DNA of 64,000 bases from Gammaproteobacteria bacterium. GTDB lineage: Bacteria > Pseudomonadota > Gammaproteobacteria > UBA4575. The stretch spans positions 704,001 through 768,000 of the forward strand of contig CBDCUI010000008.1 in NCBI GenBank assembly GCA_965222615.1. Direction: 5' to 3'. Below are positions 513 through 25,751 of this stretch, one piece after another. Numbering within the stretch: position 1 is the first letter of the stretch; each line of letters opens with the position of its first letter. A program made the translations under genes and the position numbers. Below the pieces are notes generated by a model that searched no databases, was not told the DNA's origin, and saw only the letters and a list, made by a program, of their open reading frames with translations.

Positions 513-647
513 AGAAGCTGTGATTTTTTTTGAGACAAGGCAAAAAATATCGAAAAAGCGCAGTGTATTGGTTACATACATGAGCATTTTGAGGTTATTT
601 TTTAACGACCTAAAAAATTAATTACGGCAGAATAAATCACAGTTTCT
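513..647 (-). repeat. Palindromic element copy 1 (MITE/RPE-like), opposite orientation to copies 2-6
   Basis: Terminal inverted repeat AGAAGCTGTGATTT (513-526) / AAATCACAGTTTCT (634-647). The reverse complement contains TGCTCA-TGTAT..ATACA-CTGCGC-TTTTTCGATATTTTTTGCCTTGTCTCA, matching copies 2-4. Confidence 0.9.
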
Positions 648-663
648 AAAAAGTGGAATAAAA

Positions 664-1095
664 ATGGCGAAGAAGGTAGAGGCATATATCAAGTTGCAAG
701 TTCCTGCATCGGATGCAAATCCAAGTCCTCCTGTGGGACCTGCTTTAGGTCAGCACGGGGTGAATATCATGGAGTTTTGTAAAGCCTTTAATGCGCAAAC
801 GCAAAACTTAGAAAAAGGTATGCCCGTACCTGTCGTGATCACTGTTTACAATGATCGCAGTTTCACTTTTATTACCAAGACGCCACCAGCATCGATTTTA
901 TTAAAAAAGGCAGCTGGCTTAAGTAAAGGCAGTGGTCGGCCGAATACAGATAAAGTGGGTAAGGTAAACCGTGCGCAGCTTGAAGAAATTGCTAAAACGA
1001 AAATGCCAGATATTACTGCTGCTGATATGGATGCTGCCGTGCGCACCATTGCCGGTAGTGCACGAAGCATGGGTATAGAAGTGGAAGGTGTGTAA
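664..1095 (+). CDS. rplK: 50S ribosomal protein L11
   Basis: [15 protein letters not shown] motif; located after nusG. Confidence 0.99.
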
Positions 1096-1111
1096 AGGGG
1101 TATTAATAAGA

Positions 1112-1804
1112 ATGTCTAAACCTGGAAAAAAATATCGTGCTGCACTTGAAAAAGTGGATAGTGAAAAAAGCTATGCACCTAGTGAGGCGTTACAGTTAAT
1201 CAAAGATTGCGCCAGTGCAAAATTTAAAGAGTCAGTGGATGTCTGTGTCAACTTAGGTGTAGATCCTAGAAAGTCAGACCAAGTGGTAAGAGGTTCAACT
1301 GTGTTACCGAATGGAATAGGTAAAACTATTCGGGTTGCGGTATTCGCAGAGGGTGATCAGGCTGAGGCAGCAAAATCGGCGGGTGCGGATTTAGTTGGTT
1401 TAGATGATTTAGCCGAACAAGTTAAAAAAGGGCAAATGGATTTTGATGTGGCAGTTGCTACACCTGATGCCATGCGTGTAGTCGGTCAGTTAGGCCAAAT
1501 TCTGGGGCCACGCGGATTAATGCCGAACCCTAAAGTGGGCACGGTCGCAGCAGATGTTGCGAGTGCAGTAAAAAATGCCAAGGCTGGTCAAGTTCGTTTT
1601 AAAACAGACAAAGGTGGATTGATTCATTGTTCAATTGGAAAAGTCGAATTTGATACACCAAAACTTGAAGAAAATTTAAAAGCATTAGTGGCAGATTTAG
1701 TAAAAGCCAAACCGGCTTCAGCTAAAGGTATTTATATAAAGAAAGTTACGGTTTCGTCTACTATGGGGGTAGGTGTTAGCGTTGACCAATCCGCTTTAGT
1801 GTAA
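1112..1804 (+). CDS. rplA: 50S ribosomal protein L1
   Basis: [15 protein letters not shown] motif. Start moved to ATG 1112. Confidence 0.98.
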
Positions 1805-1926
1805 GGAAACTCTGATTTAAACTGATACTTCGTTAAAAAATGATCTCAAAGTCGCTCATGTATAAAAACTGCACATCGCTCTTTTCGACATTTTTTGCCT
1901 TGTCTCAGATTAAATCAGAGCTTCTT
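1804..1926 (+). repeat. Palindromic element copy 2
   Basis: Terminal inverted repeat AGGAAACTCTGATTTAA / TTAAATCAGAGCTTCTT. Contains TACTTCGTT, GCTCATGTA and GCCTTGTCTCAG. Begins in the rplA stop codon. Confidence 0.9.
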
Positions 1927-1947
1927 TTAGAGAGAAGTATAAAAGAA

Positions 1948-2070
1948 TTGGGAGTTGTTTGTTCGTAAATAAACAAACAAGCGTCCAAGACCGTAGGTGA
2001 AGTTTTGTAGTCATTGTTAATAATGCATATGAAGCTTCTTAATAAGGAATCTTGGCCTACGTAGACTGTG
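1948..2070 (+). promoter_or_regulatory. L10 leader (L10(L12)4 autoregulatory RNA)
   Basis: CCAAGACCGTAGG...TTAATA...CCTACGTAGAC upstream of rplJ matches the recalled L10-leader core. Confidence 0.8.
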
Positions 2071-2224
2071 TTACCCAAATCAGGATGTTCCTGAGTTGGT
2101 TGCACTGTAAGGGAAGTGCCACTGTTGAACGGTATCTGTGTATAAATGTTTAGATACACTACGATCGACGATGGCGTGAATTTAGTAACACCTTGTGTGT
2201 AGTGATAACTCAGAGGACCCAACT

Positions 2225-2755
2225 GTGGCCTTAAGACTTGAAGAAAAACAAGCAATCGTATCTGAAGTGATGCAAGTTGCAACGGATGCGCATTCTGCAA
2301 TTGCGGCTGAGTACCGTGGACTTACTGTAAGTGAATTAACTGAACTTCGCTCTAAAGCACGTGAGCAAGGCGTCTATTTAAAAGTAGTTAAAAATACCCT
2401 GGCCAAACGCGCATTGGAAGGTACACCTTATGAGTGTATGCGAGAAGGATTGGTTGGCCCACTTATGTTGGCATTTTCGCAAGAAGATCCTGGTTCGGCT
2501 GCACGTCTGATAAAAGATTTTTCTAAAGAGAATGATCTACTTGCAGTAAAGATGATCTCTATTGGTGGCGAGCTACTAGAAGCGAGCGAACTAAAGAAAT
2601 TGTCAAGTCTGCCAACGAAAGATCAGGCAATTAGTATGTTGATGGCTGTAATGAAGGCACCGATTGAAAAGTTTGTGCGCACATTAAATGAACCGCATGC
2701 AAAATTGGTAAGAACCGTTGCTGCGGTGCGCGATCAGAAACAATCTGCTGGTTAA
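2225..2755 (+). CDS. rplJ: 50S ribosomal protein L10
   Basis: YRGLTV and VVKNTLA motifs. GTG start at 2225 with a GAGGA Shine-Dalgarno. Confidence 0.97.
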   Translation: MALRLEEKQAIVSEVMQVATDAHSAIAAEYRGLTVSELTELRSKAREQGVYLKVVKNTLAKRALEGTPYECMREGLVGPLMLAFSQEDPGSAARLIKDFSKENDLLAVKMISIGGELLEASELKKLSSLPTKDQAISMLMAVMKAPIEKFVRTLNEPHAKLVRTVAAVRDQKQSAG

Positions 2756-2800
2756 ATATAGGTTACAAGTTTGGTATTAGGTTTTATTAGGAGATAAAAA

Positions 2801-3181
2801 ATGGCTGTATCGAAAGAAGATATTTTGGAAACGATCTCAGAGATGAGTGTAATGGAAGTGGTTGATTTAATTTCTGCCATGGAAGAAAAATTTGGTGTTT
2901 CGGCGGCAGCGGCAGTTGCGGCAGCACCTGTTGCGGGTGCCGATAGTGGTGGTGAAGCTGCTGCAGAGAAAGACGAATTTGATGTGGTAATGAGTAGCTT
3001 CGGTGGTAATAAAGTAGCGGTGATTAAAGTGGTTCGTACGGTTACCGGTCTTGGCTTGAAAGAGGCAAAAGAGATGGTTGAGGGCGCACCTTCCACGGTT
3101 AAAGAAGCTGCTGCGAAAGACGAGGCTGAAGAGATCAAAAAGCAATTGGAAGAAGCAGGTGCAACGGTAGAGCTCAAGTAA
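2801..3181 (+). CDS. rplL: 50S ribosomal protein L7/L12
   Basis: [10 protein letters not shown] and TGLGLKEAK motifs. Confidence 0.99.
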
Positions 3182-3194
3182 TTGCAGCGCAATT

Positions 3195-3327
3195 CTGAAA
3201 GCTCTGATTTATTCTGATACGTCGTTAAAAAATGTCTCAAAATGCTCATTTACCAGCATGTAAACTGCGCTTTTTCGACATTTTTTGCCTCGTCTCAGTC
3301 GTTCACACTAATAAATCAAAGCTTCAG
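3195..3327 (+). repeat. Palindromic element copy 3
   Basis: Terminal inverted repeat CTGAAAGCTCTGATTTATT / AATAAATCAAAGCTTCAG. Core is TACGTCGTT-AAAAAATGTC..TGCTCA-TTTAC-6nt-GTAAA-CTGCGC..GACATTTTTT-GCCTCGTC. Confidence 0.92.
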
Positions 3328-3341
3328 GAAGCATTACCAAC

Positions 3342-3380
3342 AACTAAACATAGCATTTATGCAATGTTTAGTTACTTTTG
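3342..3380 (+). terminator. Possible attenuator/terminator hairpin between rplL and rpoB
   Basis: AACTAAACAT-A-GCA..TGC-A-ATGTTTAGTT hairpin followed by ACTTTTG. E. coli has an attenuator in this interval. Confidence 0.35.
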
Positions 3381-3409
3381 CATATGTATATTTAATGGAG
3401 TGACCATTT

Positions 3410-6400
3410 ATGGCGTATAGCTACACCGAGAAAAAACGAGTTCGCAAAGATTTTGGTAAACGGCCCGAAATCTTAGGTGTTCCATTTATGTTGCAAATTC
3501 AATTGGCGTCATATAGACGGTTTTTGCAGTCTGACAAAAATGCAGGAAATCGTGAAGATGTTGGATTGCATGGGGCGTTTAATACGATATTTCCAATCAT
3601 TAGTTATTCCGGAAATGTGGAGCTGCAGTATGTCAGTTATCGTTTAGAGCAACCTCCATTTGAAGTGAAAGAGTGTCAGCTTCGTGGCTTAACTTATCAC
3701 GCACCACTTAAAGTTTTACTGCGTTTAGTCATTTATGACAAAGATGCGCCTGCGGGATCAAAGAAAGTCAAAGATGTAAAAGAACAAGAAGTGTATATGG
3801 GTGAATTACCACTCATGACTGATACCGGTGCCTTTGTTATTAATGGTACAGAACGTGTAATTGTTTCGCAGTTACATCGTTCACCGGGTGTGTTCTTTGA
3901 TCATGATAAAGGTAAAACTCATTCGTCTGGTAAATTGCTTTATTCCGCAAGAGTAATTCCTTATCGCGGCTCTTGGTTGGACTTTGAGTTTGATCATAAA
4001 GATTGTTTGTTTGTGCGCATTGACCGGCGCAGGAAATTACCTGCAAGTATTTTGTTACGCGCACTTGGTTATTCCAGTGAAGAAATTCTTTCTATCTTTT
4101 TTGATACCAATACGGTACGCATCACCGATACTGGTTTTATTCTAGATTTGATTCCTGAGCGATTACGCGGAGAAATTTCACCTTTTGAAATTAAGGCGGG
4201 TGGAAAGTTAATTGTAGAAGCAGGCCGTCGTATCACGGTACGCCATGTACGTCAGATTGAAAAAGCTGGAATTAAAACATTTGAAGTACCAGTTGAATAT
4301 TTACTTGGCAAAGTGTTAGCTAAAGATTTAATTGACACCGATACAGGTGAATTAGTTTGTAAAGCCAATGATGAATTAACCGAAGAAAATATTGAAAAGA
4401 TTTTAGAGTCTACGGTTGAGGTTTTAGAGCTTTTGTACACCAATGACATTGATCGCGGTCCATATATGTCTTCGACCATTGCGATTGATCCCTCAAATAA
4501 TGAACTAGAAGCTCAAGTAGAAATTTATCGCATGATGCGCCCTGGCGAACCGCCAACCAAAGAGGCTGCACAAAATTTATTTCAAAACTTATTTTTCACT
4601 CCAGAGCGTTATGACTTATCACCGGTTGGGCGCATGAAATTCAACCGCCGCGTTGGCCGTGAAGATATGACAGGGTCAGGCATTCTGAGTAACGAAGATA
4701 TTCTGGATGTCATGCGTACGTTAATCGATATCCGTAATGGCAATGGTATCGTTGATGATATTGATCATCTCGGAAATCGACGTGTACGTTGTGTAGGTGA
4801 GATGGCAGAGAATGCATTTCGTGTCGGCTTGGTTCGTGTCGAACGAGCAGTGAAGGAACGATTAACGCTAGCTGAATCTGAAGGCTTGATGCCTCAAGAA
4901 ATGATTAATGCCAAACCCGTTGCCGCAGCAATAAAAGAGTTTTTTGGGTCTAGCCAACTTTCGCAATTCATGGATCAGAATAATCCGCTTTCTGAGATTA
5001 CCCATAAACGTAGAATTTCAGCGCTTGGGCCTGGCGGTTTAACCCGTGAACGTGCAGGATTTGAGGTACGCGACGTACATCCAACGCATTATGGCCGTGT
5101 ATGTCCTATTGAAACTCCTGAAGGTCCCAATATTGGCTTGATTAATTCCTTGGCAATTTTTGCGCGTACCAATGAATATGGCTTTTTAGAAACGCCCTAT
5201 CGAAAAGTAGTAGATAGCAAGGTTTCTAGTCAAATTGATTACTTATCTGCAATTGAGGAGAGTCAATTCACTATTGCACAGGCCAATGCGCGGGTTGACG
5301 ATAACGGTAAATTGCAAGATGAATTAGTTTCGGTACGTCATTTAAATGAATTTTCATTAGCGCCAGCAGAAAAAGTAGAGTACATGGATGTGTCACCAAA
5401 ACAGATTGTTTCTGTGGCGGCTTCCTTAATTCCGTTTTTGGAACATGACGATGCTAACCGTGCACTCATGGGTTCTAATATGCAACGTCAAGCTGTGCCA
5501 ACTTTACGTACTGAAAAACCATTGGTGGGTACTGGTATCGAACGTTCAGTGGCGATTGACTCAGGTGCGGCCTTGGTATCCAAGCGTGGTGGAGTTGTTG
5601 ATACTGTGGATGCAGGTCGAATTGTGGTGCGGGTAAATGATAATGAAACCGAAGCTGGTGAGCCGGGCGTGGATATTTATAATCTCACTAAATACACCCG
5701 TTCTAACCAAAATACCTGTATCAATCAGAAGCCATTAGTGCAACCAGGTGATGTGATTGCCAAAGGCGATGTGTTGGCAGATGGCCCCTCTACTGACCTT
5801 GGTGAATTGGCCTTAGGTCAAAATGTATTAGTCGCGTTTATGCCGTGGAATGGGTATAACTTTGAAGATTCCATCTTAATCTCTGAACGTGTGGTGGAAG
5901 AAGATCGGTTTACAACCATTCATATTGAAGAATTAAGTTGTATTGCGCGTGACACTAAATTAGGGGCAGAGGAGATTACTGCTGATATACCTAACGTAAG
6001 TGAAAATTTACTTGCCAAGTTAGATGACTCGGGCATTGTCTATGTGGGTGCAGAAGTTAAGCCGAGTGACATCTTAGTAGGCAAAGTTACGCCAAAAGGT
6101 GAGACACAACTTACCCCTGAAGAGAAACTGCTACGCGCCATCTTCGGTGAAAAGGCATCAGATGTAAAAGACACTTCTTTACGAGTTCCTTCCGGAATGG
6201 AAGGTACCGTTATTGATGTGCGTGTGTTCACGCGTGATGGTGTTGATAAAGACAAGCGTGCTTTACAAATTGAAGAATCGGAAATTGAACAAGTACGTAA
6301 AGATTTGAATGATCAATTGCGAATTTATGAGCAAGATATTTATGCACGTGTCGAACGATTAATTACTAATAAAGTTGCAGATGGTGGACCGGAAGGGCTA

Positions 6401-7492
6401 CAGGCCGAGTCTAAGGTTACCAAAGCCTATTTAGATAGTCTTGATCGAGAACGTTGGTTTGAAGTTCGTATGAGCAGTGAAGATGTTAATGCGCAACTGG
6501 AAAAACTTTCCAATCAGTTAAAAGAACAGCGTGAATCATTTGATCAAAAGTTACTCGAGAAGAAAGAAAAAATTACTGCTGGTGATGATCTTGCACCCGG
6601 TGTATTAAAGATGGTCAAAGTTTACTTGGCAGTAAAACGTCGTATGCAACCGGGCGACAAAATGGCAGGCCGACATGGAAATAAGGGTGTGGTCTCAATG
6701 ATCGTACCGGTTGAAGATATGCCGCATATGGAAGATGGAACCCCAGTTGACATTGTTTTAAATCCCCTGGGTGTGCCATCGCGGATGAATGTTGGTCAGG
6801 TGCTGGAAACCCATTTAGGTTGGGCTGCAAAAGGACTGGGTTTAAAGATTGATGGCATGCTTGGCCAGGATGGCAATGTTATGCGCTTGCGTGAATTCCT
6901 GGATGAGGTCTATAACAAAGATGAAGGGATATCGGTAAATCTTAAAGAGTTCAGTGACGACGAAGTTTTAGCTTTATCAAATAACTTGCGTCGTGGCGTA
7001 CCGATGGCAACTCCCGTTTTTGATGGTGCCCAGGAATCTGAAATTAAACGTATGCTTAAGTTAGCTGATTTACCTGAGGATGGACAAACTCATTTATGGG
7101 ACGGTCGCACTGGTGAAGCATTTGAGCGCAAAATCACTGTGGGATATATGCATATGTTAAAGCTCAATCATCTAGTTGATGACAAGATGCATGCACGTTC
7201 TACTGGACCTTACAGCCTGGTTACTCAACAACCGCTTGGGGGTAAGGCGCAATTCGGCGGTCAGCGCTTTGGTGAAATGGAAGTGTGGGCACTGGAAGCC
7301 TATGGTGCATCGTATACTTTGCAAGAGATGTTAACGGTCAAATCAGATGATGTTGTTGGCCGTAACAAAATGTATAAAAACATTGTTGATAGTAATCATA
7401 GTATGGATGCCGGCATGCCGGAATCCTTCAATGTTTTGATGAAAGAAATTCGCTCATTAGGACTCAATATTGACTTTGAGCAGGAGACGTAA
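3410..7492 (+). CDS. rpoB: RNA polymerase beta subunit
   Basis: 1360 aa. [27 protein letters not shown] and GGQRFGEME motifs. Confidence 0.99.
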
Positions 7493-10400
7493 TGAAAGAC
7501 TTATTAAGTTTATTAAAGAACCAGGGTCAAATTGAAGATTTTGATTCCATACGTATTGGCTTAGCTTCGCCAGATATGATTCGCTCTTGGTCGTATGGTG
7601 AAGTAAAGAAACCGGAGACGATAAATTATCGTACATTCAAACCTGAACGAGATGGTTTGTTCTGCGCAAAGATCTTTGGCCCAATTAAAGATTACGAATG
7701 CCTGTGTGGAAAATATAAACGCCTTAAACATCGTGGTGTAGTGTGTGAAAAGTGTGGAGTGGAAGTTACCTTAACTAAAGTACGTCGCGAACGCATGGGG
7801 CACATCGAACTAGCTAGTCCCGTAGCACATATTTGGTTTTTAAAATCTCTGCCTTCACGTATTGGCTTGTTGTTAGATATGACGTTACGGGATGTGGAAC
7901 GTATTCTATATTTTGAAGCCTTTGTCGTAATCGATCCTGGTATGACAGGCTTGGAACATAAACAGCTTTTGTCGGATGAAACCTTTTTAGAAGCCATTGA
8001 AGAATATGGAGATGAGTTTGATGCACGTATGGGGGCAGAAGCAATCTTTGAATTACTTAAACAAGTAAATTTAGAAGAAGAAGCGGAAAATTTACGTGAA
8101 GAGATCGCCTCGACGCGTTCTGAAGCTAAACTTAAACGTTTTTCAAAGCGCCTAAAGTTGGTTGAATATTTTACCGAGTCTGGCAATAAACCAGGTTGGA
8201 TGGTGTTAACCGTTTTACCTGTGTTACCACCTGATCTTCGCCCTCTTGTGCCATTGGATGGTGGGCGTTTTGCCACTTCTGATTTGAACGACTTATATCG
8301 TCGTGTCATTAATCGTAATAATCGTTTAAAACGATTATTAGAATTAAATGCGCCAGATATTATTGTACGTAATGAAAAGCGTATGTTGCAGGAATCTGTC
8401 GATGCGTTGCTAGATAACGGACGTCGAGGTCGTGCCATCACCGGTACTAATAAGCGTGCACTGAAATCACTTGCCGACATGATTAAGGGTAAACAAGGAC
8501 GTTTTCGCCAAAATTTGCTTGGTAAGCGTGTTGATTATTCTGGGCGTTCGGTAATTGTTGTGGGCCCAACCTTGAAACTGCATCAGTGTGGTTTGCCTAA
8601 AAAAATGGCACTTGAATTATTTAAGCCGTTTATATTCAGCAAGCTGCATATGCGCGGGATTGCACCCACCATTAAAGCTTGTAAAAAAGTTGTAGAGAAA
8701 GAAGGCCCAGAAGTTTGGGATATTCTTGAAGAAGTCATTCGTGAACACCCGGTACTATTAAATCGTGCACCTACGCTGCATCGTTTAGGGATTCAGGCAT
8801 TTGAGCCGACCTTAATTGAAGGTAAAGCAATACAATTGCATCCCCTTGTGTGTGCCGCGTTTAACGCAGATTTTGATGGTGATCAAATGGCTGTACATGT
8901 GCCATTGTCTATTGAAGCACAGCTTGAAAGTCGTGCCTTGATGATGTCTACCAACAATGTACTGTCTCCTGCAAATGGAGATCCCATTATTGTTCCTTCT
9001 CAAGACATTGTTTTAGGCCTTTATTATCTCACGCGCGAAAAAGTGAATGCCAAAGGTGAAGGCATGTGTTTTGCGGATGTTGCTGAGGCACAGCGTGCTT
9101 ATGAAAGTAATACGGTTGCTTTACATGCAAAAGTAAAAATTCGTGTGAATGATGTTGATATAAGTGAGGAAGGTGAGGTCACTGAGGTACGTCGAATTAT
9201 CGAAACCACAGTTGGCCGCGGTATTCTTTCAAAAATTTTACCCAAAGGTTTGCCGTTTTCACTGGTAAACCAATCGATGGGCAAGCGTGAAATTTCTACA
9301 TTGATCGACTCTTCTTATCGACGAGTTGGATTAAAAGATACCGTCATCTTTGCAGACAACTTAATGTATACAGGATTTAAATATGCAACGCGCGCAGGTG
9401 TTTCATTTTGTGCGGATGACATGGCTATTCCGTCAGAAAAGCAATCCATACTAAGTGAGGCAGAAAAAGAAGTGAAAGAAATTGCTTCACAGTATGCATC
9501 AGGTTTAGTAACAAAGGGTGAGCGTTATAATAAAGTTATTGATATTTGGTCACACACTAATGACCAAGTGGCAAAAGCTATGATGGATGGTTTAGGAAAA
9601 GAGGAAGTTCAAGATGCTGAAGGAAATCATGTTACGCAAGAATCCTTCAATTCAATTTATATGATGGCAGATTCGGGTGCTAGAGGTTCGGCAGCTCAAA
9701 TCAGACAACTTGCGGGTATGCGAGGTTTAATGGCCAAACCTGATGGTTCCATTATTGAAACACCGATAACGGCTAATTTCCGTGAGGGGTTGAATGTGTT
9801 GCAGTACTTTATTTCAACACATGGTGCACGAAAGGGTTTAGCGGATACTGCTTTAAAGACAGCAAATTCCGGTTATCTAACACGTCGATTAGTAGATGTT
9901 GCTCAAGACTTAGTCGTCACAGAACAAGATTGTGGTACGGATGATGGTATGCAAATGAAACCTATCATCGAAGGTGGTGATGTGGTGCAAACCCTACAAA
10001 CTCGTGTATTAGGACGTGTTACAGCTGAAGATGTATACGACGTAAAAGGAAAAAATGTTGTTATTCCTGCTGGCACTTTATTGGACGAATCTTGGGTGGA
10101 AAAATTTGAAGAAGAAGGCGTTGATGAAGTAAAAGTTCGCGCACCGATTGCTTGTAAAACGAGATATGGCGTGTGCTCAATGTGCTATGGGCGCGATTTA
10201 GCACGTGGCCATCTTGTCAATGATGGTGAAGCAGTTGGTGTAATTGCTGCACAGTCTATCGGAGAGCCTGGAACACAACTTACCATGCGCACCTTTCACA
10301 TTGGTGGTGCAGCTAGCCGTGCAGCTTCTACCAGTGACATCAGTGTAAAGTCTATAGGTACGGTTCGGATGCATAATTTGAAGCTAGTACAACATAACAA

Positions 10401-11760
10401 TGGTCATAATGTTGCCGTCTCCAGATCGGGTGAATTGAGTATTGTTGATGAACAAGGTCGTGAAAAAGAACGCTATAAAATTCCTTACGGCGCATCTATT
10501 TCGGTAAATAATGAAGATGCCGTGCATGCGGGGCAAATGGTTGCAACTTGGGATCCACATACCCACCCCATCATTACGGAGGTGGCCGGGCAAATACAGC
10601 TTGTTGATTTTGCCGATGGCGTGACAGTGGATTCTTATACAGATGAGGTAACTGGACTGAGTTCCACTATTGTATCGGATCCAAAGAGTCGCCCTGCAGC
10701 TGGAAAAGACCTGCGTCCAGCGGTGAATTTGTTAGATAAAAATGGTGAACCTCTTAAGTTTACCGGTACAGAAATTCCTGCACATTACATACTTCCACCT
10801 GGCGCAATCGTTAGTTTGTCTGATGGTGATGCAGTGGATGTTGGTGATGTGATTGCGCGGATTCCACAAGAGTCATCGAAGACACGTGATATCACGGGTG
10901 GTTTGCCACGCGTAGCAGATTTATTTGAAGCACGTAAACCTAAAGAACCCGCTGTTTTGGCAGAACAAACAGGCACAGTAAGTTTCGGTAAAGATACTAA
11001 GGGAAAGGAGCGTCTTGTTATTACAAATGAAGACGGTGAATCTACCGAAGAACTTATTCCGAAGTGGCGTCAAATAAACGTATTTGAAGGGGAGCATGTT
11101 GAAAAAGGTGAAGTTGTTGTTGATGGCGAACTTAATCCACATGACATTTTACGTTTATTGGGTATTACTGCCTTAGCAGAATACTTGATAAAGGAAATAC
11201 AAGATGTATACCGTCTTCAAGGCGTTGGCATCGATGATAAACATATTGAAGTTATTATCAGACAAATGCTGCGTAAGGCAGAAATAATTGAGGCTGGTGA
11301 TACAAACTATTTGCGTGGTGAGCAAGTAGAAAAATCTCGAGCCTTAGAGACTAATGAAAAAATGCAGGCGGACGGTAAGGAACCGGCCACTTTTGCCCCA
11401 GTATTATTGGGAATCACTAAGGCCTCGTTGGTTACAGAGTCGTTTATTTCGGCGGCTTCATTCCAGGAAACTACACGAGTGTTAACCGAAGCAGCCGTGC
11501 GAGGCTCGAAAGATTCATTGCGCGGTTTAAAAGAAAATGTCATCGTAGGTCGCTTGATACCGGCTGGAACCGGTTTGGCTTATCATGAAAAAAGACGTGA
11601 AAGCGCCATATCTGCAATGAGCACAGATGAGCAAGAACTTCCAGATCTTGAACAAGAAGTACCCCCTAGTGAGACGATGGTACAAGAGGCCTTGGCAGAA
11701 GAACTTTCCAACTCAGAGGCAAATCGTGATTCGGCTGAACAAAGCCCACCGGTTGAATAA
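7492..11760 (+). CDS. rpoC: RNA polymerase beta' subunit
   Basis: Catalytic NADFDGD and zinc-finger CLCGKYK motifs. Confidence 0.99.
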
Positions 11761-11795
11761 CGGCTTTTTGTTATTCGTTGGATTTGTGAGTTTGC

Positions 11796-11832
11796 TTGAC
11801 ACTATAGCTGCAGGTTTCTACAATTCCGCGGC
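11796..11832 (+). promoter_or_regulatory. Sigma70 promoter of the str operon
   Basis: TTGACA (11796-11801), a 17-bp spacer, TACAAT (11819-11824), then a GC-rich discriminator TCCGCGGC. Confidence 0.8.
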
Positions 11833-11893
11833 TAACTTACAGGCCGATGTTTCATCGGCCTGTTGTTTATTTTGGGTATAGAAAACATAAATT

Positions 11894-12774
<881 letters not shown>

Positions 12775-12799
12775 TTCGTTTTGATACCGGGCATTCAAC

Positions 12800-14899
12800 A
12801 TGGCGCGCAAGACTCCCATCACACGGTATCGAAATATCGGCATCATGGCGCATATTGATGCAGGTAAGACGACTACTACCGAACGAGTTCTCTTTTATAC
12901 CGGTATCTCCCACAAAATAGGTGAAGTTCATGACGGTGCAGCTGTCATGGATTGGATGGAGCAAGAGCAAGAGCGCGGTATTACGATCACCTCAGCTGCA
13001 ACCACTTGCTTTTGGAGTGGCATGGGTAATCAACATGATCAGCATCGAATCAATATTATCGATACTCCAGGTCATGTCGATTTCACCATCGAAGTTGAAC
13101 GTTCACTTCGAGTGCTAGATGGTGCTTGCGCAGTGTTTTGTGCCGTGGGTGGAGTCGAACCCCAGTCCGAAACCGTGTGGCGACAGGCAAATAAATATCA
13201 GGTTCCGCGCATGGCTTTCGTGAATAAGATGGATCGAGCTGGCGCTGATTTTTTGCGTGTTGTAGAACAAATTCGTGAAAGGCTTGGATCGCTAGCTGTA
13301 CCCATTCAGTTGCCAATTGGTGCAGAGGATGGGTTCAAAGGTGTGGTTGATTTAATCAAGATGAAGGCGATTTATTGGAATGAAGCAGATTTGGGCACTA
13401 CCTTTGCAGAAGAAGAAATTCCAGATGATATGCAAGCGGATTGTCAAAAATGGCGTGATGAGATGATAGAAGCCGCAGCTGAATCATCTGAGGAAATTAT
13501 GGAGAGTTACCTAGAAGAAGGAATCTTATCCGAGGAGGACATTCGCAAGGGGCTGCGTTACCGCACTTTAGCCAATGAAATCGTGCCGACTTTATGCGGA
13601 TCTGCCTTTAAAAACAAAGGCGTACAAGCAATGTTGGATGCGGTAATTGATTTTATGCCTTCACCTACTGATGTCCCTGCAATCCAAGGCACTTTAGATG
13701 ATAAGGGCGAAACGGTTAGTGAACGTAAGTCTTCGGATGATGAACCGTTTGCTGCATTGGCATTTAAGATTGCAACAGACCCGTATGTAGGTACGTTAAC
13801 TTTTTTCCGTGTATATTCAGGTGTGTTGAGTTCGGGAGATACGGTTTTTAATCCGGTAAAAAATAAAAAAGAACGTGTTGGTCGTATTTTGCAAATGCAC
13901 TCCAATTCTCGTGAAGAAATTAAAGAGGTGCGAGCTGGTGATATTGCGGCTGCTGTGGGTTTAAAAGATGTAACCACGGGTGAAACTTTATGCGACTTAA
14001 AACATGTGATTACTTTGGAGCGTATGGAATTCCCAGAGCCGGTAATTTCAGTCGCCGTTGAGCCTAAAACCAAATCTGATCAAGAAAAAATGGGTATTGC
14101 ATTACAGAAATTAGCACAAGAGGATCCATCTTTCCGTGTACAAACCGATGAAGAATCGGGTCAAACAATTATCTCTGGAATGGGCGAATTACATCTTGAT
14201 ATTATTGTCGACCGCATGAAACGAGAGTTTAGCGTCGAAGCCAATGTAGGCGCACCACAAGTTTCCTACCGTGAAACGATTCAGACAAAAATTGAACATG
14301 AGAGTAAATTTGTTCGTCAATCCGGTGGGCGTGGTCAATATGGGCATGTATATTTAAGGATAGAACCACAAAAACCCGGTAATGGCTTCGAGTTTGCCAA
14401 TGAAATTGTCGGTGGTGCGGTACCGCGCGAATATATACCTGCGGTAGAAAAAGGCGTTAAGGAAGCCATGGATAATGGTGTGATTGCGGGTTATCCAGTA
14501 GTAGATGTAAAAGTAACGCTTTATGATGGTTCTTATCATGATGTAGATTCGTCTGAAATGGCGTTTAAAATAGCAGGCTCTATGGGATTTCGTGATGGTG
14601 CCAAGCAAGCGGATCCTGTACTTCTAGAACCTATTATGAAAGTTGAAGTAGTAACACCTGAAGAATACATGGGTGATGTGGTAGGCGATTTAAACCGCCG
14701 TCGCGGTATGGTAGGTGGTATGGAAGATGGTCCTTCTGGAAAAATAATCCGTTCTGAAGTTCCATTAGCCGAAATGTTTGGTTATGCAACCGATTTGCGC
14801 TCGGCAACACAAGGGCGCGCAACTTATTCAATGGAATTTGATAAGTATAAACAAGTGCCTGGAAATCTTTCAGACGCAATTATTAAGAAAAGTTCATAA
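12800..14899 (+). CDS. fusA: Elongation factor G
   Basis: [14 protein letters not shown] and NKMD GTPase motifs; 699 aa. Confidence 0.99.
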
Positions 14900-14944
14900 A
14901 TCAGAGTATTGTTAATAAAGATATTTTTGAAGAGGTAAAAAAAG

Positions 14945-16135
14945 ATGTCCAAAGAGAAATTTGAGCGCACGAAGCCGCATGTCAATGTTGGGACGATCGG
15001 GCATGTAGATCATGGGAAGACGACGTTAACGGCGGCGTTGACCAAGATCATGGGAGAGGCGCACGGCGGGGAGTTTAAGGCGTATGATCAGATCGACAAT
15101 GCGCCGGAAGAGCGCGAGCGGGGCATCACGATCGCGACGGCACATGTGGAATATGAGAGTCCGAATCGCCACTATGCGCATGTGGACTGTCCCGGACATG
15201 CGGACTATGTGAAGAACATGATCACAGGCGCCGCGCAAATGGATGGGGCGATTTTAGTGGTGAGTGCCGCGGATGGGCCGATGCCGCAGACCCGCGAACA
15301 CATCCTATTAGCCCGCCAAGTAGGGGTGCCCTACATATTGGTGTACATGAACAAAGCCGATCAAGTGGATGATGCCGAGCTGCTAGAACTGGTAGAGATG
15401 GAAGTGCGCGATCTACTGTCGACCTATGAATTTCCAGGCGACGATACGCCGATCGTCACGGGCTCAGCATTAAAGGCACTAGAAGGCGACACCTCCGAGA
15501 TCGGCGTGCCCTCGATCGTCAAGTTGGTGGAAGAGATGGACAACTTTATCCCGGAACCGGAACGCGCGATCGATGGCGACTACATCATGCCAGTGGAAGA
15601 CGTGTTTTCGATCTCCGGACGCGGCACGGTGGTGACCGGACGCATCGAGCGCGGCATCATCAAAGTCGGAGATGAGATCGAGATTGTGGGGATCAAAGAC
15701 ACGACGACGACGACCTGTACGGGCGTAGAAATGTTTCGCAAACTGCTGGATCAAGGGCAGGCGGGGGACAATGTAGGAGTACTACTGCGCGGCACGAAGC
15801 GCGACGAAGTGGAGCGCGGGCAAGTGCTGTGCAAGCCAGGGAGCATTACGCCGCATACCAAATTCGAAGCGGAAGTGTATATCTTGAGCAAAGAAGAAGG
15901 GGGGCGGCATACACCGTTTTTCAATGGCTATCGACCGCAATTTTACTTTCGCACGACCGATGTGACGGGGGCGGTAGAGTTACCGAGTGGCACCGAGATG
16001 GTGATGCCGGGAGATAATGTACAGATGACGGTATCGATGATTGCGCCGATCGCGATGGAAGAAGGGCTACGCTTTGCGATCCGTGAAGGCGGACGAACGG
16101 TGGGTGCTGGAGTCGTTGCGAAAATTATTGAATGA
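14945..16135 (+). CDS. tuf: Elongation factor Tu
   Basis: GHVDHGKTT and [15 protein letters not shown] motifs; 396 aa. Confidence 0.99.
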
Positions 16136-16154
16136 AAAATAGAGAGTAATCACT

Positions 16155-16472
16155 ATGCCAGCAGCAGGACAAACCATACGTATACGCTTAAAAGCCTTCG
16201 ATCATCGACTTATAGATCGTTCTGCAAGTGAAATCGTAGAAACAGCGAAGCGTACCGGTGCAAGGGTGAGGGGACCGATCCCTTTACCTACCAAAAAAGA
16301 GCGTTTTACAGTGCTGATTTCTCCACATGTGGATAAGAATGCGCGGGATCAGTATGAGATACGTACTCATAAGCGCATAATGGATATCGTCGAGCCTACC
16401 GATAAGACCGTGGATGCCTTGATGAAATTGGATTTGGCGGCAGGCGTTGATGTTCAAATCAAATTAAATTAA
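16155..16472 (+). CDS. rpsJ: 30S ribosomal protein S10
   Basis: [14 protein letters not shown] and GPIPLPT motifs. Confidence 0.99.
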
Positions 16473-16620
16473 GAAAGCCCTGATTTATCCTGATACGCCC
16501 CTAAAAAATTTGATTATGAAAAAATGTCTTAAAATACTCATGTATCACCTATACACTCCACTTTTTCGACATTTTTGCCTCGTCTCAGTCACATATACTG
16601 ATAAAACAGAGTTTCTTTAA
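16469..16620 (+). repeat. Palindromic element copy 4
   Basis: Terminal inverted repeat TTAAGAAAGCCCTGATTTATC / GATAAAACAGAGTTTCTTTAA. Core is TACTCA-TGTAT..ATACA-CTCCAC..GACATTTTT-GCCTCGTCTCAG. Overlaps the rpsJ stop codon. Confidence 0.9.
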
Positions 16621-16710
16621 CTTACTAGAACCCCCAAAAGGGATAAAATTTCTATTTCAAAGTATGAATTAGGTGAGTAGAGCTAAAATAGTCGATTTAT
16701 GGATAATTGA

Positions 16711-16835
16711 ATGAAGAAAATGGTTTTCTAAGACTCTGATTTTTGGGATAATGCTCGGCTTTCTGCGGCCCGGCCTGGGGAGACCCATGCCGGGCCGTGA
16801 TTATCAGGCAACCTAAAAATTCCCAGTTTTTTCAT
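16711..16835 (+). promoter_or_regulatory. Long imperfect hairpin with GC-rich GAGA-tetraloop apex upstream of rplC (candidate leader)
   Basis: CGGCCCGGC-C-TGGG-GAGA-CCCA-T-GCCGGGCCG at 16766-16797. Outer pairings are GATAAT/ATTATC, GATTTTTGGG/CCTAAAAATT and ATGAAGAAAATGG/CCAGTTTTTTCAT. Confidence 0.6.
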
Positions 16836-16851
16836 CGGGCGTGTATTGAAT

Positions 16852-17610
16852 ATGTCACTAGGTTTAATTGGTACAAAAGTTGGAATGACACGTGTCTTTA
16901 ATGAGGCAGGTGTGTCTGTGCCTGTAACCGTATTACATGTTCCAGCGAATCGTGTCTCTCAAGTACGCGTACCCGAAGTAGATGGTTATCAAGCCATACA
17001 AGTTACCTATGGTGAAAAGAAACTTTCACAAATCAATAAACCTATGTCTGGTCATTTTGCAAAATCAGGTGTGCTTGCGGGCAGAGGGTTACGTGAGTTT
17101 AGACTTGAGGGAGATCAGCAAGGTGAGTTAACTGTTGGATCAGAAATTACTGCAAATTTGTTTTCGGTGGGTCAAAAAGTTTCGGTAACGGGGATTTCAA
17201 AGGGTAAGGGTTTTGCGGGGCCGGTAAAACGCCATAACTTTGGTATGCAAGACGCAACCCATGGTAATTCGCTTTCGCATCGTGCACATGGTTCTACCGG
17301 CCAATGTCAAGATCCTGGGCGTGTTTTTAAAGGTAAAAAAATGGCCGGGCAAATGGGAAATGTCAAAGTCACCACGAAAAATTTAGAAGTGGTGCAAATT
17401 GATAATGATAAAGAGTTACTACTTATCAAGGGATCCGTGCCTGGCGCACCTGGTGGTGATGTTGTTGTACGGCCGGTTAATCCTAATGAAGTAAATATGC
17501 CAACTGAAAGTGCTTCAACTGAAGAAACCGATGCAACTGAACCAGCCGCAGAAGAAGTAAAAGAAAAATCCCAAGAAAAACCTCAAGTGAAATCAGAATC
17601 TGAAGAATAG
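16852..17610 (+). CDS. rplC: 50S ribosomal protein L3
   Basis: [15 protein letters not shown] and [11 protein letters not shown] motifs. Start at ATG 16852. Confidence 0.98.
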
Positions 17611-19988: not shown

Positions 19989-20132
19989 GAAATATATTAG
20001 AGATTAAGAGAAAGATTTAGTAGTGATTTATATGTGCATAACCACAACATTTAAATTTTTAACCAAAGGTAATTGCTAGATATGCATACAAAACCATCAC
20101 GTCGAGCGTTATACAGGACAGGGTGCTAGATC

Positions 20133-20834: not shown

Positions 20835-20854
20835 TTAAATAAGACTTAAACCAA

Positions 20855-21268: not shown

Positions 21269-21278
21269 AAACGACACA

Positions 21279-21482: not shown

Positions 21483-21527
21483 CTATGCAAACTACTAGTG
21501 AAAACAAAATATTTGTGGGAGTGTTGA

Positions 21528-21791
21528 ATGTCTGAAGAGCAGAAAAAGATTCGCACTCTGCAAGGAATGGTTGTTAGTGACAAGATGGATAAGACCGTGA
21601 CAGTTTTATTAGAGCGCCAAGTAAAACATCCTTTATATAAAAAGTATATTAAACGTTCTACAAAATTACATGTGCATGATGAAAATAATGAATGTTCAAT
21701 AGGTGACAAGGTTTCAATACGCGAGTGCCGTCCTTTTTCTAAAACGAAATCGTGGCAGCTTGTCGAAGTTATTGAGCGTGGTATTACGTAG
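21528..21791 (+). CDS. rpsQ: 30S ribosomal protein S17
   Basis: VVSDKMDKT and ECRPFSKTK motifs. Confidence 0.98.
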
Positions 21792-21809
21792 GTGTGATGA
21801 GGGGTAGTT

Positions 21810-22178
21810 ATGATTCAGATGCAAACTACGCTGGAAGCAGCAGACAACAGTGGTGCACGCAAAGTGCAGTGTATCAAGGTGCTTGGTGGTTCGCACCGTC
21901 GTTATGCCAGGATTGGCGACATTATTAAAGTAAGTGTTAAAGATGCTATTCCACGTGGAAAGGTAAAAAAGGGCGAGGTCTACAATGCGGTGGTAGTAAG
22001 AACTGCACAAGGTGTACGTCGACCGGATGGGTCATTAATCAGGTTTGATAGCAACGCAGCGGTGTTATTAAACCAACAATTACAACCCATTGGCACACGA
22101 ATTTTTGGGCCGGTAACACGTGAATTACGTACTGAGCGTTTTATGAAAATTATTTCATTAGCGCCAGAAGTTTTATAA
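21810..22178 (+). CDS. rplN: 50S ribosomal protein L14
   Basis: [15 protein letters not shown] and SLAPEVL motifs. Confidence 0.99.
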
Positions 22179-22202
22179 AAGTTTTGGGTTAAGTGTAGAA
22201 AA

Positions 22203-22520
22203 ATGCAACGAATTCGAACAGGTGATGATGTGATTGTAATCGCTGGCAAAGATAAAGGCCGGCGAGGCACTGTATTGAAGGTCATTGATGACGATCATTT
22301 GGTCATCGAGAATATAAACATTGCTAAAAAACATCAAAAACCGAATCCAAATATGGGAATTGCTGGTGGTATAAATGAGCAAGAAAACCCAATACATGCC
22401 TCTAATGTCATGTTGTTTAATCCGGCTACGAATAAAGGCGACAAAATTGGTTTTAAGATTTTAGAAGATAATAAAAAAGTTCGTTATTTTAAATCTAACG
22501 GCGAAGTTGTAGATGTATAG
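22203..22520 (+). CDS. rplX: 50S ribosomal protein L24
   Basis: [16 protein letters not shown] motif. Confidence 0.98.
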
Positions 22521-22525
22521 GTACA

Positions 22526-23065
22526 ATGGCTAGACTTCAAGAATATTACATGAATACAGTTCGTAACCAGCTTATGGAAAAGCTAGGTTATAAAAATATT
22601 ATGCAAGTGCCTCGTATTGAAAAAATTACCTTAAATACAGGTGTGGGTGAAGCCGTGCGTGATAAGAAAGTTATTGAAAAAGTAGTTACTGATATGGAAC
22701 AAATAGCGGGACAAAAAGCAGTAGTGACCCGAGCAAGGAAATCGATTGCGGGATTTAGTATTCGTGATGGTTTTCCGATTGGTTGTAAAGTTACTTTGCG
22801 TAAAACAAGGATGTACGAATTTTTGGATCGCTTAATCAGTATCGCAATTCCACGTGTAAGAGATTTTCGCGGTTTAAATACTAGGGCATTTGATGGACGA
22901 GGTAATTATAGCCTAGGGATTAGCGAACAGATTATTTTTCCTGAAATCGATTACGATAAAATAGATGCAATTCGTGGAATGGATATTGCGATTACAACAA
23001 CCGCAAATACAGATGAAGAAGCTAAGGCACTACTAGAAGCATTTAGTTTTCCATTTAGAAGATAA
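22526..23065 (+). CDS. rplE: 50S ribosomal protein L5
   Basis: PRVRDFRG and FDGRGNY motifs. Confidence 0.99.
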
Positions 23066-23078
23066 AGAGAGTTCAAGC

Positions 23079-23384
23079 ATGGCAAAAAATTCAATGGTGG
23101 AGCGTGAGAAAAAGCGTGCAAAAGTTGTATTACGTTATGCTAATAAACGCTCTCAACTTAAAGCCATTATTAAAAGCTCAACAACTAGTTATGAAGAAAA
23201 GCAAGAAGCTATGTTGCAACTACAGAAGCTACCCAAAAATGCTAGTCCAACTCGATTACGTAATCGCTGCAGCTTAACTGGAAGACCAAAAGGATATTAT
23301 CGAAAATTTGGATTAGGTCGTAATAAATTACGTGAAGCTGCAATGCGTGGCGATATTCCTGGTTTAGTTAAAGCAAGTTGGTAA
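23079..23384 (+). CDS. rpsN: 30S ribosomal protein S14 (long, non-zinc type)
   Basis: [10 protein letters not shown] and PGLVKASW motifs; 101 aa. Confidence 0.98.
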
Positions 23385-23408
23385 GAGTTTGTAAATTAGG
23401 ATAATGAT

Positions 23409-23804
23409 ATGAGTATGAGTGACCCAATTTCCGATATGTTAACGCGTATTCGTAATGGGCAGAGTGCCAGAAAAGTAACTGTTACTATGCCTTCGTCAAA
23501 AGTCAAAATAGCTATTGCCAATGTGCTTAAAGAAGAAGGTTTTATTGAAGACTGTGCGGTTGATGAAGACGGCCCTAAGAGCAATTTATCTGTCACGCTT
23601 AAATATTATATGGGTGAACCGGTTATCTCTAAGCTTAAAAGAGTAAGTCGGCCCGGTTTGCGTATCTATAAGAATGTAGATGATTTGCCCAAAGTAATTG
23701 GTGGAATGGGTGTTGCGATAATATCTACGTCCAATGGTGTCATGAGTGATCGTGCAGCTCGTGCTGCAGGTCATGGTGGCGAAGTTTTATGTACTGTTGA
23801 GTAA
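23409..23804 (+). CDS. rpsH: 30S ribosomal protein S8
   Basis: [12 protein letters not shown] and SRPGLRIY motifs. Confidence 0.99.
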
Positions 23805-23819
23805 GTAACGTTAATCATT

Positions 23820-24347
23820 ATGTCGCGAATTGCTAAACAAGCTATCGATATTCCATCTGGTGTGGATGTGAAGTTACAAGGGCAGCATCTTACCGTAAAA
23901 GGCCCTAATGGTGAGTTGTCTATGGATATTCACGACGATGTTAACGTTGAGTTGCAAGATAAACGATTACAAGTGGTAATGGAAAAGTCAAACAATGTTG
24001 CCATGGCTGGAACCATGCGTGCATTGATGAATAATTTAGTGACAGGTGTAAATGCTGGATTTGAACGCAAGCTAGAATTGGTTGGTGTTGGTTATCGTGC
24101 ACAATCAAAAGGTAAGACGTTGAATTTATCATTAGGGTTTTCACACCCGGTTGATTATCCAGTGCCGGAAGGAATTAAAATTGAGACACCAAGTCAGACA
24201 GAGGTCGTGATTAAAGGTGCTGATAAGCAAAAAGTTGGACAAGTTGCTGCAGAAATTCGTGCCTTTCGACCGCCTGAACCCTATAAGGGTAAGGGTGTTA
24301 AATATGCGGAAGAGAGGATCGTACGCAAAGAGGCAAAGAAAAAGTAA
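23820..24347 (+). CDS. rplF: 50S ribosomal protein L6
   Basis: [13 protein letters not shown] motif. Confidence 0.99.
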
Positions 24348-24504
24348 AGGCTATGACACATATGATCTTTTTCTCCAATACATCGTTTTCGAATTTCTCA
24401 AATGCTCATGTACTGGCGTGTACACTCCGCCCTAAAATAATGAGACTAGGGAAATTCTCAGGCCTTGTCTTGAAGAAAAATTTCTATCTGTGTAATAGCT
24501 TTAA
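24345..24504 (+). repeat. Palindromic element copy 5 (divergent stems)
   Basis: Imperfect terminal inverted repeat TAAAGGCTATGACACA / TGTGTAATAGCTTTAA. Conserved TACATCGTT, TGCTCA-TGTAC..GTACA-CTCCGC and GCCTTGTC. Starts at the rplF stop codon. Confidence 0.88.
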
Positions 24505-24526
24505 ATAATTATTTAATTTAATTGTG

Positions 24527-24880
24527 ATGAATAAATCAAATTCAAGAACACGACGGGCTTTAAAGACGCGCAAAAAAATATCTGCGTTGAAAGCCCATCG
24601 CTTGTGTGTGCATCGAACTCCAAAACACATATATGCACAAATCATTACACCAGCTGGCGGTGAAACAATTGTCAGTGCATCGTCTTTGGATACGAGTGTG
24701 CGAGATGCAGTTAATTACACTGGTAATGTGGAAGCGGCAAAAGCCGTTGGAAAAATGATTGCCGAACGCGCCAAAGATAAAGGTGTAGAAAATGTAGCCT
24801 TTGATCGCTCTGGCTTTAAATACCATGGTCGTGTTAAAGCCATGGCAGATGCTGCCCGCGAAGCAGGATTAAAGTTTTAA
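24527..24880 (+). CDS. rplR: 50S ribosomal protein L18
   Basis: [14 protein letters not shown] motif. Confidence 0.98.
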
Positions 24881-24904
24881 GTAACAATCAAGGATTATTA
24901 GTAA

Positions 24905-25411
24905 ATGGCAACGAACGAACCAGCAAGAATATCAGACGGTCTAGAAGAGAGATTGGTGGCCGTCAATCGTGTTGCAAAAGTAGTAAAAGGTGGCCGTCAA
25001 TTTGGTTTTACTGCGCTTACGGTGGTTGGTGACGGTAATGGCAAAGTGGGAGTAGGTTACGGGAAAGCGCGTGAAGTCCCTTTGGCGATACAAAAAGCAA
25101 TGGAAAAAGCACGTAAAGAATTAAAGCATGTGCCACTTATAGACGGTACTTTATATTACCCGGTGATGGGTAGACATGGTGCAGCAAAAATATTTATGCA
25201 ACCTGCCTCTGTGGGAACCGGAATTATTGCTGGTGGCGCAATGCGTGCCGTATTTGAAGTAGTTGGTGTGAAAAACGTTTTATCAAAATGCATCGGGTCT
25301 AGAAACCCGATCAATGTAGTACAAGCGACCATTAATGCATTGAGTAATATGCAATCACCCGATTTAATTGCTGCGAAACGTGGCAAGACGGTTGAAGAAA
25401 TTATGTCGTGA
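24905..25411 (+). CDS. rpsE: 30S ribosomal protein S5
   Basis: [10 protein letters not shown] and GTGIIAGG motifs. Confidence 0.99.
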
Positions 25412-25425
25412 GTGAACTTCAGAAT

Positions 25426-25608
25426 ATGAGTAAGCAATTAAAAGTGACATTAGTGAAAAGCCTAAGTGGAAGACTTGCGGCCCATAAGGCATGTGCAAGA
25501 GGCTTGGGTATTCGTCGTATTCATAATCCGGTTATGGTTGTAGATACTCCTGAAAACCGCGGCATGATTAATAAGATTAGCTATATGCTAAAAGTTGAAG
25601 ACACATAA
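25426..25608 (+). CDS. rpmD: 50S ribosomal protein L30
   Basis: LKVTLVKS and DTPENRGMI motifs. Start at ATG 25426. Confidence 0.96.
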
Positions 25609-25751
25609 AGAACTTATCTCAAAATGAATCTTTTCCATTTATACAACGTTCTCGCTTTTCTTAAATGCTCATGTACTAGCGTGTACACTGCGCTTTTCGA
25701 AAAGCTCGGGCCTCGTCTAAATGTAAAATCTCCAATTTTGAGATAAGTTCT
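25609..25751 (+). repeat. Palindromic element copy 6 (divergent stems)
   Basis: Perfect 17-bp terminal inverted repeat AGAACTTATCTCAAAAT / ATTTTGAGATAAGTTCT. Conserved TACAACGTT, TGCTCA-TGTAC..GTACA-CTGCGC and GCCTCGTC. Directly follows the rpmD stop codon. Confidence 0.92.

Follow-up and report, generated by a model that had tools for sequence, protein, structure and literature searches.

The stretch of DNA analysed here, referred to throughout as the window, comprises 64,000 nt (positions 704001-768000 of contig C8) of a gammaproteobacterial genome of 3.10 Mb and 39% G+C in nine contigs (G000). Among the open reading frames (ORFs) of the genome we read a set of dsr genes, and the host is therefore taken to be a sulfur oxidiser. 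Between genes of its ribosomal-protein operons lie six related palindromic elements of 123-160 nt, c1 to c6, whose sequence was read over all six of the ranges listed below. These are probably copies of a dispersed, non-autonomous palindromic transposable element of the miniature inverted-repeat kind (MITE), with a core of about 89 nt that is common across the Proteobacteria and is found also in the Correia elements of Neisseria.

c1, 513..647, minus strand: element between nusG and rplK (L11); core about 531-622; site empty in G001, G002, G006 and G007
c2, 1804..1926, plus strand: element between rplA (L1) and rplJ (L10); core about 1816-1907; site empty in G001, G002, G006 and G007
c3, 3195..3327, plus strand: element between rplL (L7/L12) and rpoB; core 3208-3297; site empty in G001, G002, G006 and G007
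c4, 16469..16620, plus strand: element between rpsJ (S10) and rplC (L3); core about 16484-16587; site empty in G001, G002, G006, G007 and G022
c5, 24345..24504, plus strand: element between rplF (L6) and rplR (L18); core about 24376-24472; site empty in G001, G002, G006, G007 and G022
c6, 25609..25751, plus strand: element between rpmD (L30) and rplO (L15); core about 25639-25721; site empty in G001, G002, G006, G007 and G022

Structure of the six elements

Pfam confirms the flanking genes for NusG, L11, L1, L10, L7/L12, S10, L3, L6, L18 and L30, while rpoB (a 1360-aa ORF) and rplO were assigned from ORF size and gene order. The repeat search ties the copies to one another through direct families D4, D6, D7, D10 and D13 and inverted pairs I1-I5, I7, I15 and I24, and in the alignment c1 runs in the reverse direction to c2-c6. 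The core pattern TGCTCA-stem-loop-stem-CT(G/C)CGC, which had been recognised in the preliminary description, is present in the alignment of all six copies. An nhmmer profile built from them finds exactly six matches in the window and none in 25752-64000, as had been thought from inspection. Each copy also folds, as proposed, into a single end-to-end hairpin, with minimum free energies of -22.8 to -47.7 kcal/mol and z-scores of -2.86 to -8.48, calculated from 200 dinucleotide shuffles per copy over the coordinates of the preliminary description. For five copies no shuffle out of 200 folded as well; for the copy at 16470-16619, four did.

The copies differ in their ends and in the insertions they carry. 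The left end of c2, TAAGGAAAC, includes the rplA stop codon, and that of c4, TAAGAAAGC, the rpsJ stop codon; c4 has in addition an insert of about 16 nt in its left arm. The element c3 is the window's top match to R1, a covariance model of the core. Element c5 begins at the rplF stop codon and has divergent arms and an apical insert of about 20 nt, and it is only 68% identical to its nearest paralogue, the range for the six being 68-87%. The arms of c6 are of a second type (AGAACTTATCTCAAAAT...), which recurs in other taxa, and c6 is flanked by TAA on both sides, the left TAA being the rpmD stop codon.

The six sites are empty in related genomes

All six sites are vacant in G001, which belongs to the same genus, and in G002, G006 and G007; in G022 they are likewise empty where its contig reaches (c4, c5 and c6). 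The flanking genes of these relatives align with those of the window, and the element-sized segment is absent at all six positions. As the preliminary description had noted, rplF-rplR and rpmD-rplO are normally tight junctions: the L6-L18 spacers of the relatives measure 7-27 nt (27 nt in G001) and their L30-L15 spacers 8-26 nt. In the present genome the element begins at or right after the stop codon, and the spacer left over resembles that of the relatives. The six copies are lineage-specific insertions.

No transposase had been noticed in the window, and none of PF01609, PF13358 and PF01797, the three families for which it was checked, has a match inside it. Taken with some 126 copies in the genome, the vacant orthologous sites and the failure to find a cognate transposase, this bears out the description of the element as non-autonomous, structured and mobile. 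The outcome for the window itself is deflationary, in that what is seen there is a set of lineage-specific insertions of a genome-wide repeat and not a ribosomal regulatory device.

Copy number and placement in the genome

The nhmmer search of the whole genome gave 161 matches at E<=1 and 126 at E<1e-5, 97 of them near full length. Placement was assessed against our own ORF-based calls (2877 genes, 87% coding), and all 126 copies lie outside called genes: 96 between tandem genes, 22 between convergent and 7 between divergent genes, with one at a contig edge. Set against the 2136 tandem, 366 convergent and 366 divergent junctions of the genome, these counts correspond to occupancies of 4.5%, 6.0% and 1.9% respectively, so that copies prefer the 3' ends of genes and shun divergent promoter regions.

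The elements range from 105 to 227 nt, below the 300 bp customary for a MITE, and have no ORF in common; the single ORF that starts in c3 runs on beyond the element. The family consensus of 135 nt ends in inverted repeats of about 20 nt, TAAGGAAGCTCTGATTTATT ... AATAAATCAGAGCTTCCTTA. Besides c6, two further copies of the genome have arms of the second type. The mean identity between paralogues is 66% and the median to the nearest neighbour 85%, and the family is judged to be old.

The proposal that the element is strongly enriched in, or specific for, highly transcribed operons did not hold up. Six of the 38 junctions in the ribosomal cluster are occupied, compared with 122 of 2820 (4.3%) genome-wide, which gives a pointwise binomial p of 0.005; yet 54 of the 2783 windows of 38 junctions have six or more occupied, and 78% of permutations yield at least six somewhere (P 0.78). 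The densest stretch, with 9 of 38 junctions occupied, lies elsewhere, at C8:190112-228528, and includes dsr genes. A codon-adaptation proxy is slightly raised in flanking genes (p 0.03-0.09), codon bias being weak in this genome. The neighbours elsewhere are mixed, and comprise DnaK, AhpC, DsrC, TIM and SecG but also TatD, aminopeptidase N, Cas6, a TonB receptor and an SNF symporter.

The segment C8:190000-196000 holds, by our reading of its ORFs, the end of dsrL followed by dsrJ, O, P, N and R. Within this dsr operon two intercistronic copies occupy 193606-193724 and 195161-195280, making it a second essential operon that tolerates them.

Some copies are compound. Two lie head to tail, 1 nt apart, at C8:91186-91316 and 91318-91467, and in another genome (G669) one junction holds two copies; the ends of resident copies may serve as insertion sites. 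Sixteen of the 97 near-full copies carry a 69-nt insert, richer in G+C, at the same site on the 3' side of the core (for example C8:311937-312134 and C9:562016-562231), though none of those in the window does. All 19 BLAST matches to this insert lie in or beside element copies. The inserts are 88-100% identical and their host elements average 79%, which suggests a nested module, either younger or more constrained than its hosts. Copies from Pseudomonas (for example at loci L016, L027, L069 and L077) have G+C-rich inserts of 13-15 nt at two positions of the core, a parallel to the 69-nt insert of this genome.

A covarying core found across the phylum

The core of about 89 nt is kept throughout the hosts, and the outer arms vary by lineage. 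An alignment of 60 sequences contains compensatory double changes in 18 of 21 predicted pairs. Its paired cells are complementary in 93.3% of cases, against 77.5% in shuffled alignments (none of 500 reached the observed value) and 31-53% when the partners are slid. The boxes GATACGGCGTT, TGCTCA, ACTSCGC and GCCTTGTCTC are near-invariant, and one U-G pair is kept in 57 of the 60 sequences.

When 185,579 species genomes were scanned for an exact pattern, at least 120 stretches matched. Among the hosts listed are many Pseudomonas, Chromobacterium, Vogesella, Pseudogulbenkiania, Halomonas, Endozoicomonas, Marinobacterium, Porticoccus, Thiohalomonadaceae and Candidatus Thiodiazotropha, and a few of the matches are due to chance. 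The covariance model R1 matches 72 of 151 genomes of the class, sampled one per family. It also matches 46 of 151 genomes in a sample of the phylum, 34 of these being labelled as outside the class; copies from three such genomes retain the apical AATGCTCAYGTAC...GTACRCTCCGC hairpin. Chromobacterium has 150 copies or more, Vogesella 35 and Pseudogulbenkiania 27. Fifteen plasmid records, from Pseudomonas, Halomonas and Candidatus Fukatsuia, match the family, all of them unannotated beneath the match. In viral contigs, 12 exact pattern matches were obtained and none was confirmed by the core hidden Markov model (HMM).

Rfam 15 has no match in the window at the gathering score. At E<=5 over 400-3500, and at E<=1 on copies from eight loci of other taxa, it gave chance matches outside the elements only. 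Literature searches for the core motifs, for Correia-like elements and for Correia repeats in Chromobacterium found none of these, although the supplementary sequences of PMC11602168 and PMC3189936 might hold the family. The MITEs published from Thiomargarita are unrelated. A single covarying core hairpin recurs in roughly half of the class families that were sampled and is absent from Rfam 15 and from the literature searched.

Relation to the Correia elements

The 13-mer terminal motif of Correia elements, published in PMC5039591, was used to search 401 genomes of the order containing Chromobacterium. It is abundant in only three of these, G283, G371 and G230, with inverted-pair counts of 288+288, 166+167 and 11+10 respectively. 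R1, which was built without any Correia sequence, has 18 matches in G283, 3 in G371 (E about 2e-8) and none in G230, among 150 scored candidates in genomes that hold hundreds of Correia termini. The matches lie within elements flanked by the Correia motif; those whose sequence was read are 107 nt long with Correia ends, and one match begins 9 nt past a listed Correia motif. An alignment of eight sequences, from the window, from Pseudomonas, from Chromobacterium and from Correia-flanked elements, has TAC..CGTT, GTAC...GTA and GCCT.GTC in common.

Correia elements (also called CREE, for Correia repeat enclosed element, and NEMIS, for Neisseria miniature insertion sequences) resemble the present family in being small, palindromic, non-coding, high-copy and intergenic, without a known transposase. 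Common to both are also two asymmetric boxes, ..TACGGCGTT.. and ..GCCTTGTC.., together with a GTAC...GTAC stem at the apex. The published variants of Correia ends (...GGTACGG and ...AGGACAA; PMC5039591) mirror the two asymmetric boxes of this family. However, the outer 26-nt repeat TATAGTGGATTAA... forms the ends of none of the six window copies, and the classic 156-nt Correia form has another centre. Because this defining outer repeat is absent here, the family is placed beside Correia in a wider superfamily, and not within it. One core hairpin appears to link the Correia elements of Neisseria, which have for decades been studied as specific to one genus, to repeats of Pseudomonas, Chromobacteriaceae, sulfur oxidisers and other groups.

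Stop codons and target sites

In 35 of the 97 near-full copies no more than 1 nt separates the end of a called gene's stop codon from the edge of the GGAAG...CTTCC body, and in 27 of these the two coincide. The stops at left ends are TAA in 18 cases, TAG in 10 and TGA in 4, compared with 1695, 621 and 561 genome-wide. Target sites are clearer in Chromobacterium fluminis (G176), where 45 HMM matches fall in 40 loci and both ends could be located in 33. All 33 copies measure 139-141 nt and are preceded by TNA at the left end; in 22 of them a 3-bp TNA is directly duplicated without mismatch. Twenty-three adjoin the stop codon of an ORF with 60 codons or more, at the left end only in 15 cases, at the right only in 7 and at both ends in 1. 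Target duplication, like arm type, differs between lineages, with TNA in Chromobacterium and TAA...TTA ends in the present genome. A 3-bp TNA duplication is typical of one subgroup of insertion sequence (IS) IS5, and a TA target is typical of IS630/Tc1-like elements and of Correia.

Over 101 copies, and whatever their context, the strand complementary to that of c2-c6 has the better fold by about 8 kcal/mol, so this comparison picked out no selected RNA strand.

Proposed mechanism of spread

We propose that DDE-type transposases acting in trans mobilise the copies, with a separate enzyme probably serving each arm type, and that these enzymes cut at TA or TNA. Insertions targeting a TAA, TAG or TGA stop codon would survive because the duplication restores the stop. 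Tight operons whose genes end in TAA, such as those for ribosomal proteins, would then collect copies because insertions that reuse the stop do no harm. Since they lie between co-transcribed genes, the copies should each be transcribed as a long imperfect RNA hairpin, by analogy with Correia and enterobacterial repetitive intergenic consensus (ERIC) elements. Such hairpins, of tens of base pairs, might be substrates of RNase III, either cut or protected, or might stabilise the 3' end of the upstream message. The six hairpins would on this account not be a dedicated device for regulating ribosomal proteins but tolerated passengers with at most mild effects.

Several observations weigh against the reading of the family as a dispersed MITE of this kind. 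The core is better conserved than the ends, the opposite of a typical MITE. Stop codons abut the left end in 32 copies and the right end in 4 (two-sided binomial, about 2e-6), and the copies are oriented 66:30 relative to transcription, a bias not expected if DDE insertion is symmetric. With respect to the leading strand the orientation is 81:44; the left end abuts a stop 23 times on leading-strand and 9 times on lagging-strand genes and the right end 2 and 2 times, and as the left-end excess persists on lagging-strand genes (9 vs 2) the bias tracks the gene and not replication. The terminal 3 nt are inverted (TAA...TTA) in 24 of the 97 copies, direct in 2 and neither in 71; given such inverted ends in the main subfamily, target duplication is not demonstrated here save for the TAA...TAA at c6. 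The search for a partner, which covered the present genome, turned up no transposase with matching ends, and none came to light in another genome. Of the five copies of G001, four lie at sites occupied also in G000, and the remaining one has an empty site there. The orthologous pairs are 85%, 73% and 85% identical, compared with 66% for paralogues, and have arm positions changed jointly on both sides in compensatory fashion. This retained identity hints at selection after insertion and not a pure passenger. Finally, the tallies for the 151 genomes of the class, both for R1 and for PF01797 (below), include the unpublished genomes G063 and G141. A purely selfish model leaves unexplained the greater conservation of core than of ends, the retained orthologues with their compensatory changes and the gene-tied orientation.

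Alternative explanations

It is possible, though less likely, that the core is a selected cargo riding on interchangeable transposon ends. The apical AATGCTCAYGTAC-loop-GTACRCTSCGC hairpin and core might then be a mobile structured module of RNA or single-stranded DNA, distributed across the phylum, located at gene 3' ends, maintained by purifying selection and carried by varied transposon ends with TA or TNA targets, those of Correia repeats among them. The function selected could lie at the level of the host or of the element, for instance in processing by a nuclease or in binding of a protein to the hairpin, and would concern many operons, not only ribosomal ones. Conservation of the core beyond the arms in different taxa is in keeping with this, as are the covarying helices with their fixed boxes and U-G pair, the lineage-specific arm types and duplications, the orthologous copies of G001 (up to 85% identical, with compensatory changes) and the orientation bias that tracks gene direction. 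Palindromes can, however, stay complementary without serving a function, where extruded hairpins are repaired; relatives dispense with all six window sites; and no orientation bias was seen in 93 copies of other taxa, with counts of 16-17 for the left and 14-16 for the right, by a rough test whose RNAfold-based boundaries overshoot the element ends. Were the cargo view correct, the module would count as a so far unrecognised cis-acting element, of RNA or DNA, that spreads horizontally and serves for example in processing, stability or protein binding, and not as inert MITE filler. Conservation of the core, the stop-codon target and the gene-tied orientation together make it testable, in tractable organisms, whether the element is selfish, self-repairing or functional, how it moves and what it does to polycistronic mRNAs.

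That the element is a domesticated hairpin, enriched in highly transcribed operons and tuning the processing or stoichiometry of ribosomal-protein mRNAs, is improbable. The pointwise excess at the ribosomal junctions favours it, as does the location of copies within operons, where they must be co-transcribed, in the dsr operon too; but the six sites are empty in four to five relatives, and the permutation result, the denser cluster elsewhere, the feeble codon-adaptation signal and the mixed neighbours all count against it. Very improbable, in our estimation, is a population of the REPIN type, in which single-stranded hairpins are moved by a RAYT/Y1 (HUH) transposase to sites 3' of TAR in one orientation. 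Such movement would account for an element that is wholly a hairpin with its left end at stops (32 to 4), and there is one single-copy Y1 gene, with PF01797 being commoner in R1-positive genomes. Yet this gene is not flanked by elements, 15 of 72 R1-positive genomes lack PF01797, the clean 3-bp duplications of Chromobacterium are not made by HUH transposition, and it is the ends of REPINs, not their centre, that are conserved. The least probable of the alternatives is that the hairpins are intrinsic terminators or attenuators between genes. The preference for gene 3' ends and the A- and T-runs of the inner stem would suit a terminator, but none of the six copies contains a terminator-like site in a consensus scan, the stems are AT-rich, and strong termination at L6/L18 or L30/L15 would be deleterious. 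A promoter scan of the six copies returned a single weak site, on the minus strand, in c3.

Other known repeats and candidate mobilising genes

In being imperfect palindromes of about 127 nt, intergenic and in transcribed positions, ERIC elements, also known as intergenic repeat units (IRU), are similar to this family. A review reports that copies of ERIC at the 3' ends of Yersinia genes alter mRNA decay. An enterobacterial copy of the present family (L072), searched in distant mode, matches none of 20,395 Escherichia coli records, so a sequence relationship to ERIC would not seem to be supported by that search. For Correia elements of Neisseria, that review and PMC2649163 describe co-transcription, binding of integration host factor (IHF), the creation of promoters, and cleavage or protection by RNase III.

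MITEPsy1 of Pseudomonas syringae is comparable in size, at about 100 nt; this MITE targets CTAG or YTAA, is found on Pseudomonas plasmids and, as stated in PMC3189936, is derived from IS5 and experimentally mobile. Identity with MITEPsy1 was considered and rejected: its terminal repeats, as published there, are absent from all loci of the family and from the copies of this genome. The copy of the family on a plasmid from the P. syringae group has ends other than those of MITEPsy1.

Like REPINs with their RAYTs, the family consists of long hairpin-forming repeats (doublets in the case of REPINs) in high copy with long vertical inheritance; it conserves the centre, whereas REPINs conserve the ends. 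Rickettsia palindromic elements (RPEs) are known for insertion in frame within genes. They share with the present family the character of palindromic dispersed repeats and differ from it in that here all 126 copies lie outside called genes; the resemblance to RPE cores that had been suggested in the preliminary description is unsupported.

PF01609 and PF13358 have no match anywhere in this genome. Searches for solo arms gave 24 matches, of which two candidate pairs enclose dsr and housekeeping genes and no transposase. The sole match to PF01797 is the single-copy Y1 gene at C8:549505-549831, which adjoins an IS30-like gene. The 3.3-kb locus of the Y1 gene contains no element match, so that no RAYT is flanked by the family. 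Among the 151 genomes of the class, PF01797 is carried by 57 of 72 R1-positive and 45 of 79 R1-negative genomes (Fisher p 0.005); nine of the 15 R1-positive genomes that lack it have at least 10 R1 matches. The Y1 locus (C8:548432-550158) comprises a 328-aa ORF with 25-nt inverted repeats at its ends, then a 230-aa Y1/RAYT-like gene. We take the 328-aa ORF to be IS30-like from its sequence. Downstream of the Y1 gene lies a pair of small ORFs resembling a toxin-antitoxin system.

Further features of the window

Alignment of the contigs of two DNA sequencing runs to 300-17000 showed them to break at the repeats, and these runs are uninformative on RNA. Between c2 and the called start of rplJ lie about 270 nt of non-coding sequence (1927-2194), presumably the L10 leader, for which Rfam gives only sub-threshold chance matches to S15 and S4 leaders. 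A further stretch of about 225 nt (16621-16845) separates c4 from the start of the longest rplC ORF. Since the first 102 residues of that ORF precede the Pfam L3 match, which opens at residue 103, rplC probably begins further downstream and the c4-rplC spacer is correspondingly longer. Elsewhere in the window, an ORF of 1804 aa on the plus strand (31553-36967) contains nine tandem repeats with periods alternating between 291 and 294 nt, alternate units being 100% and 70% identical to the reference.

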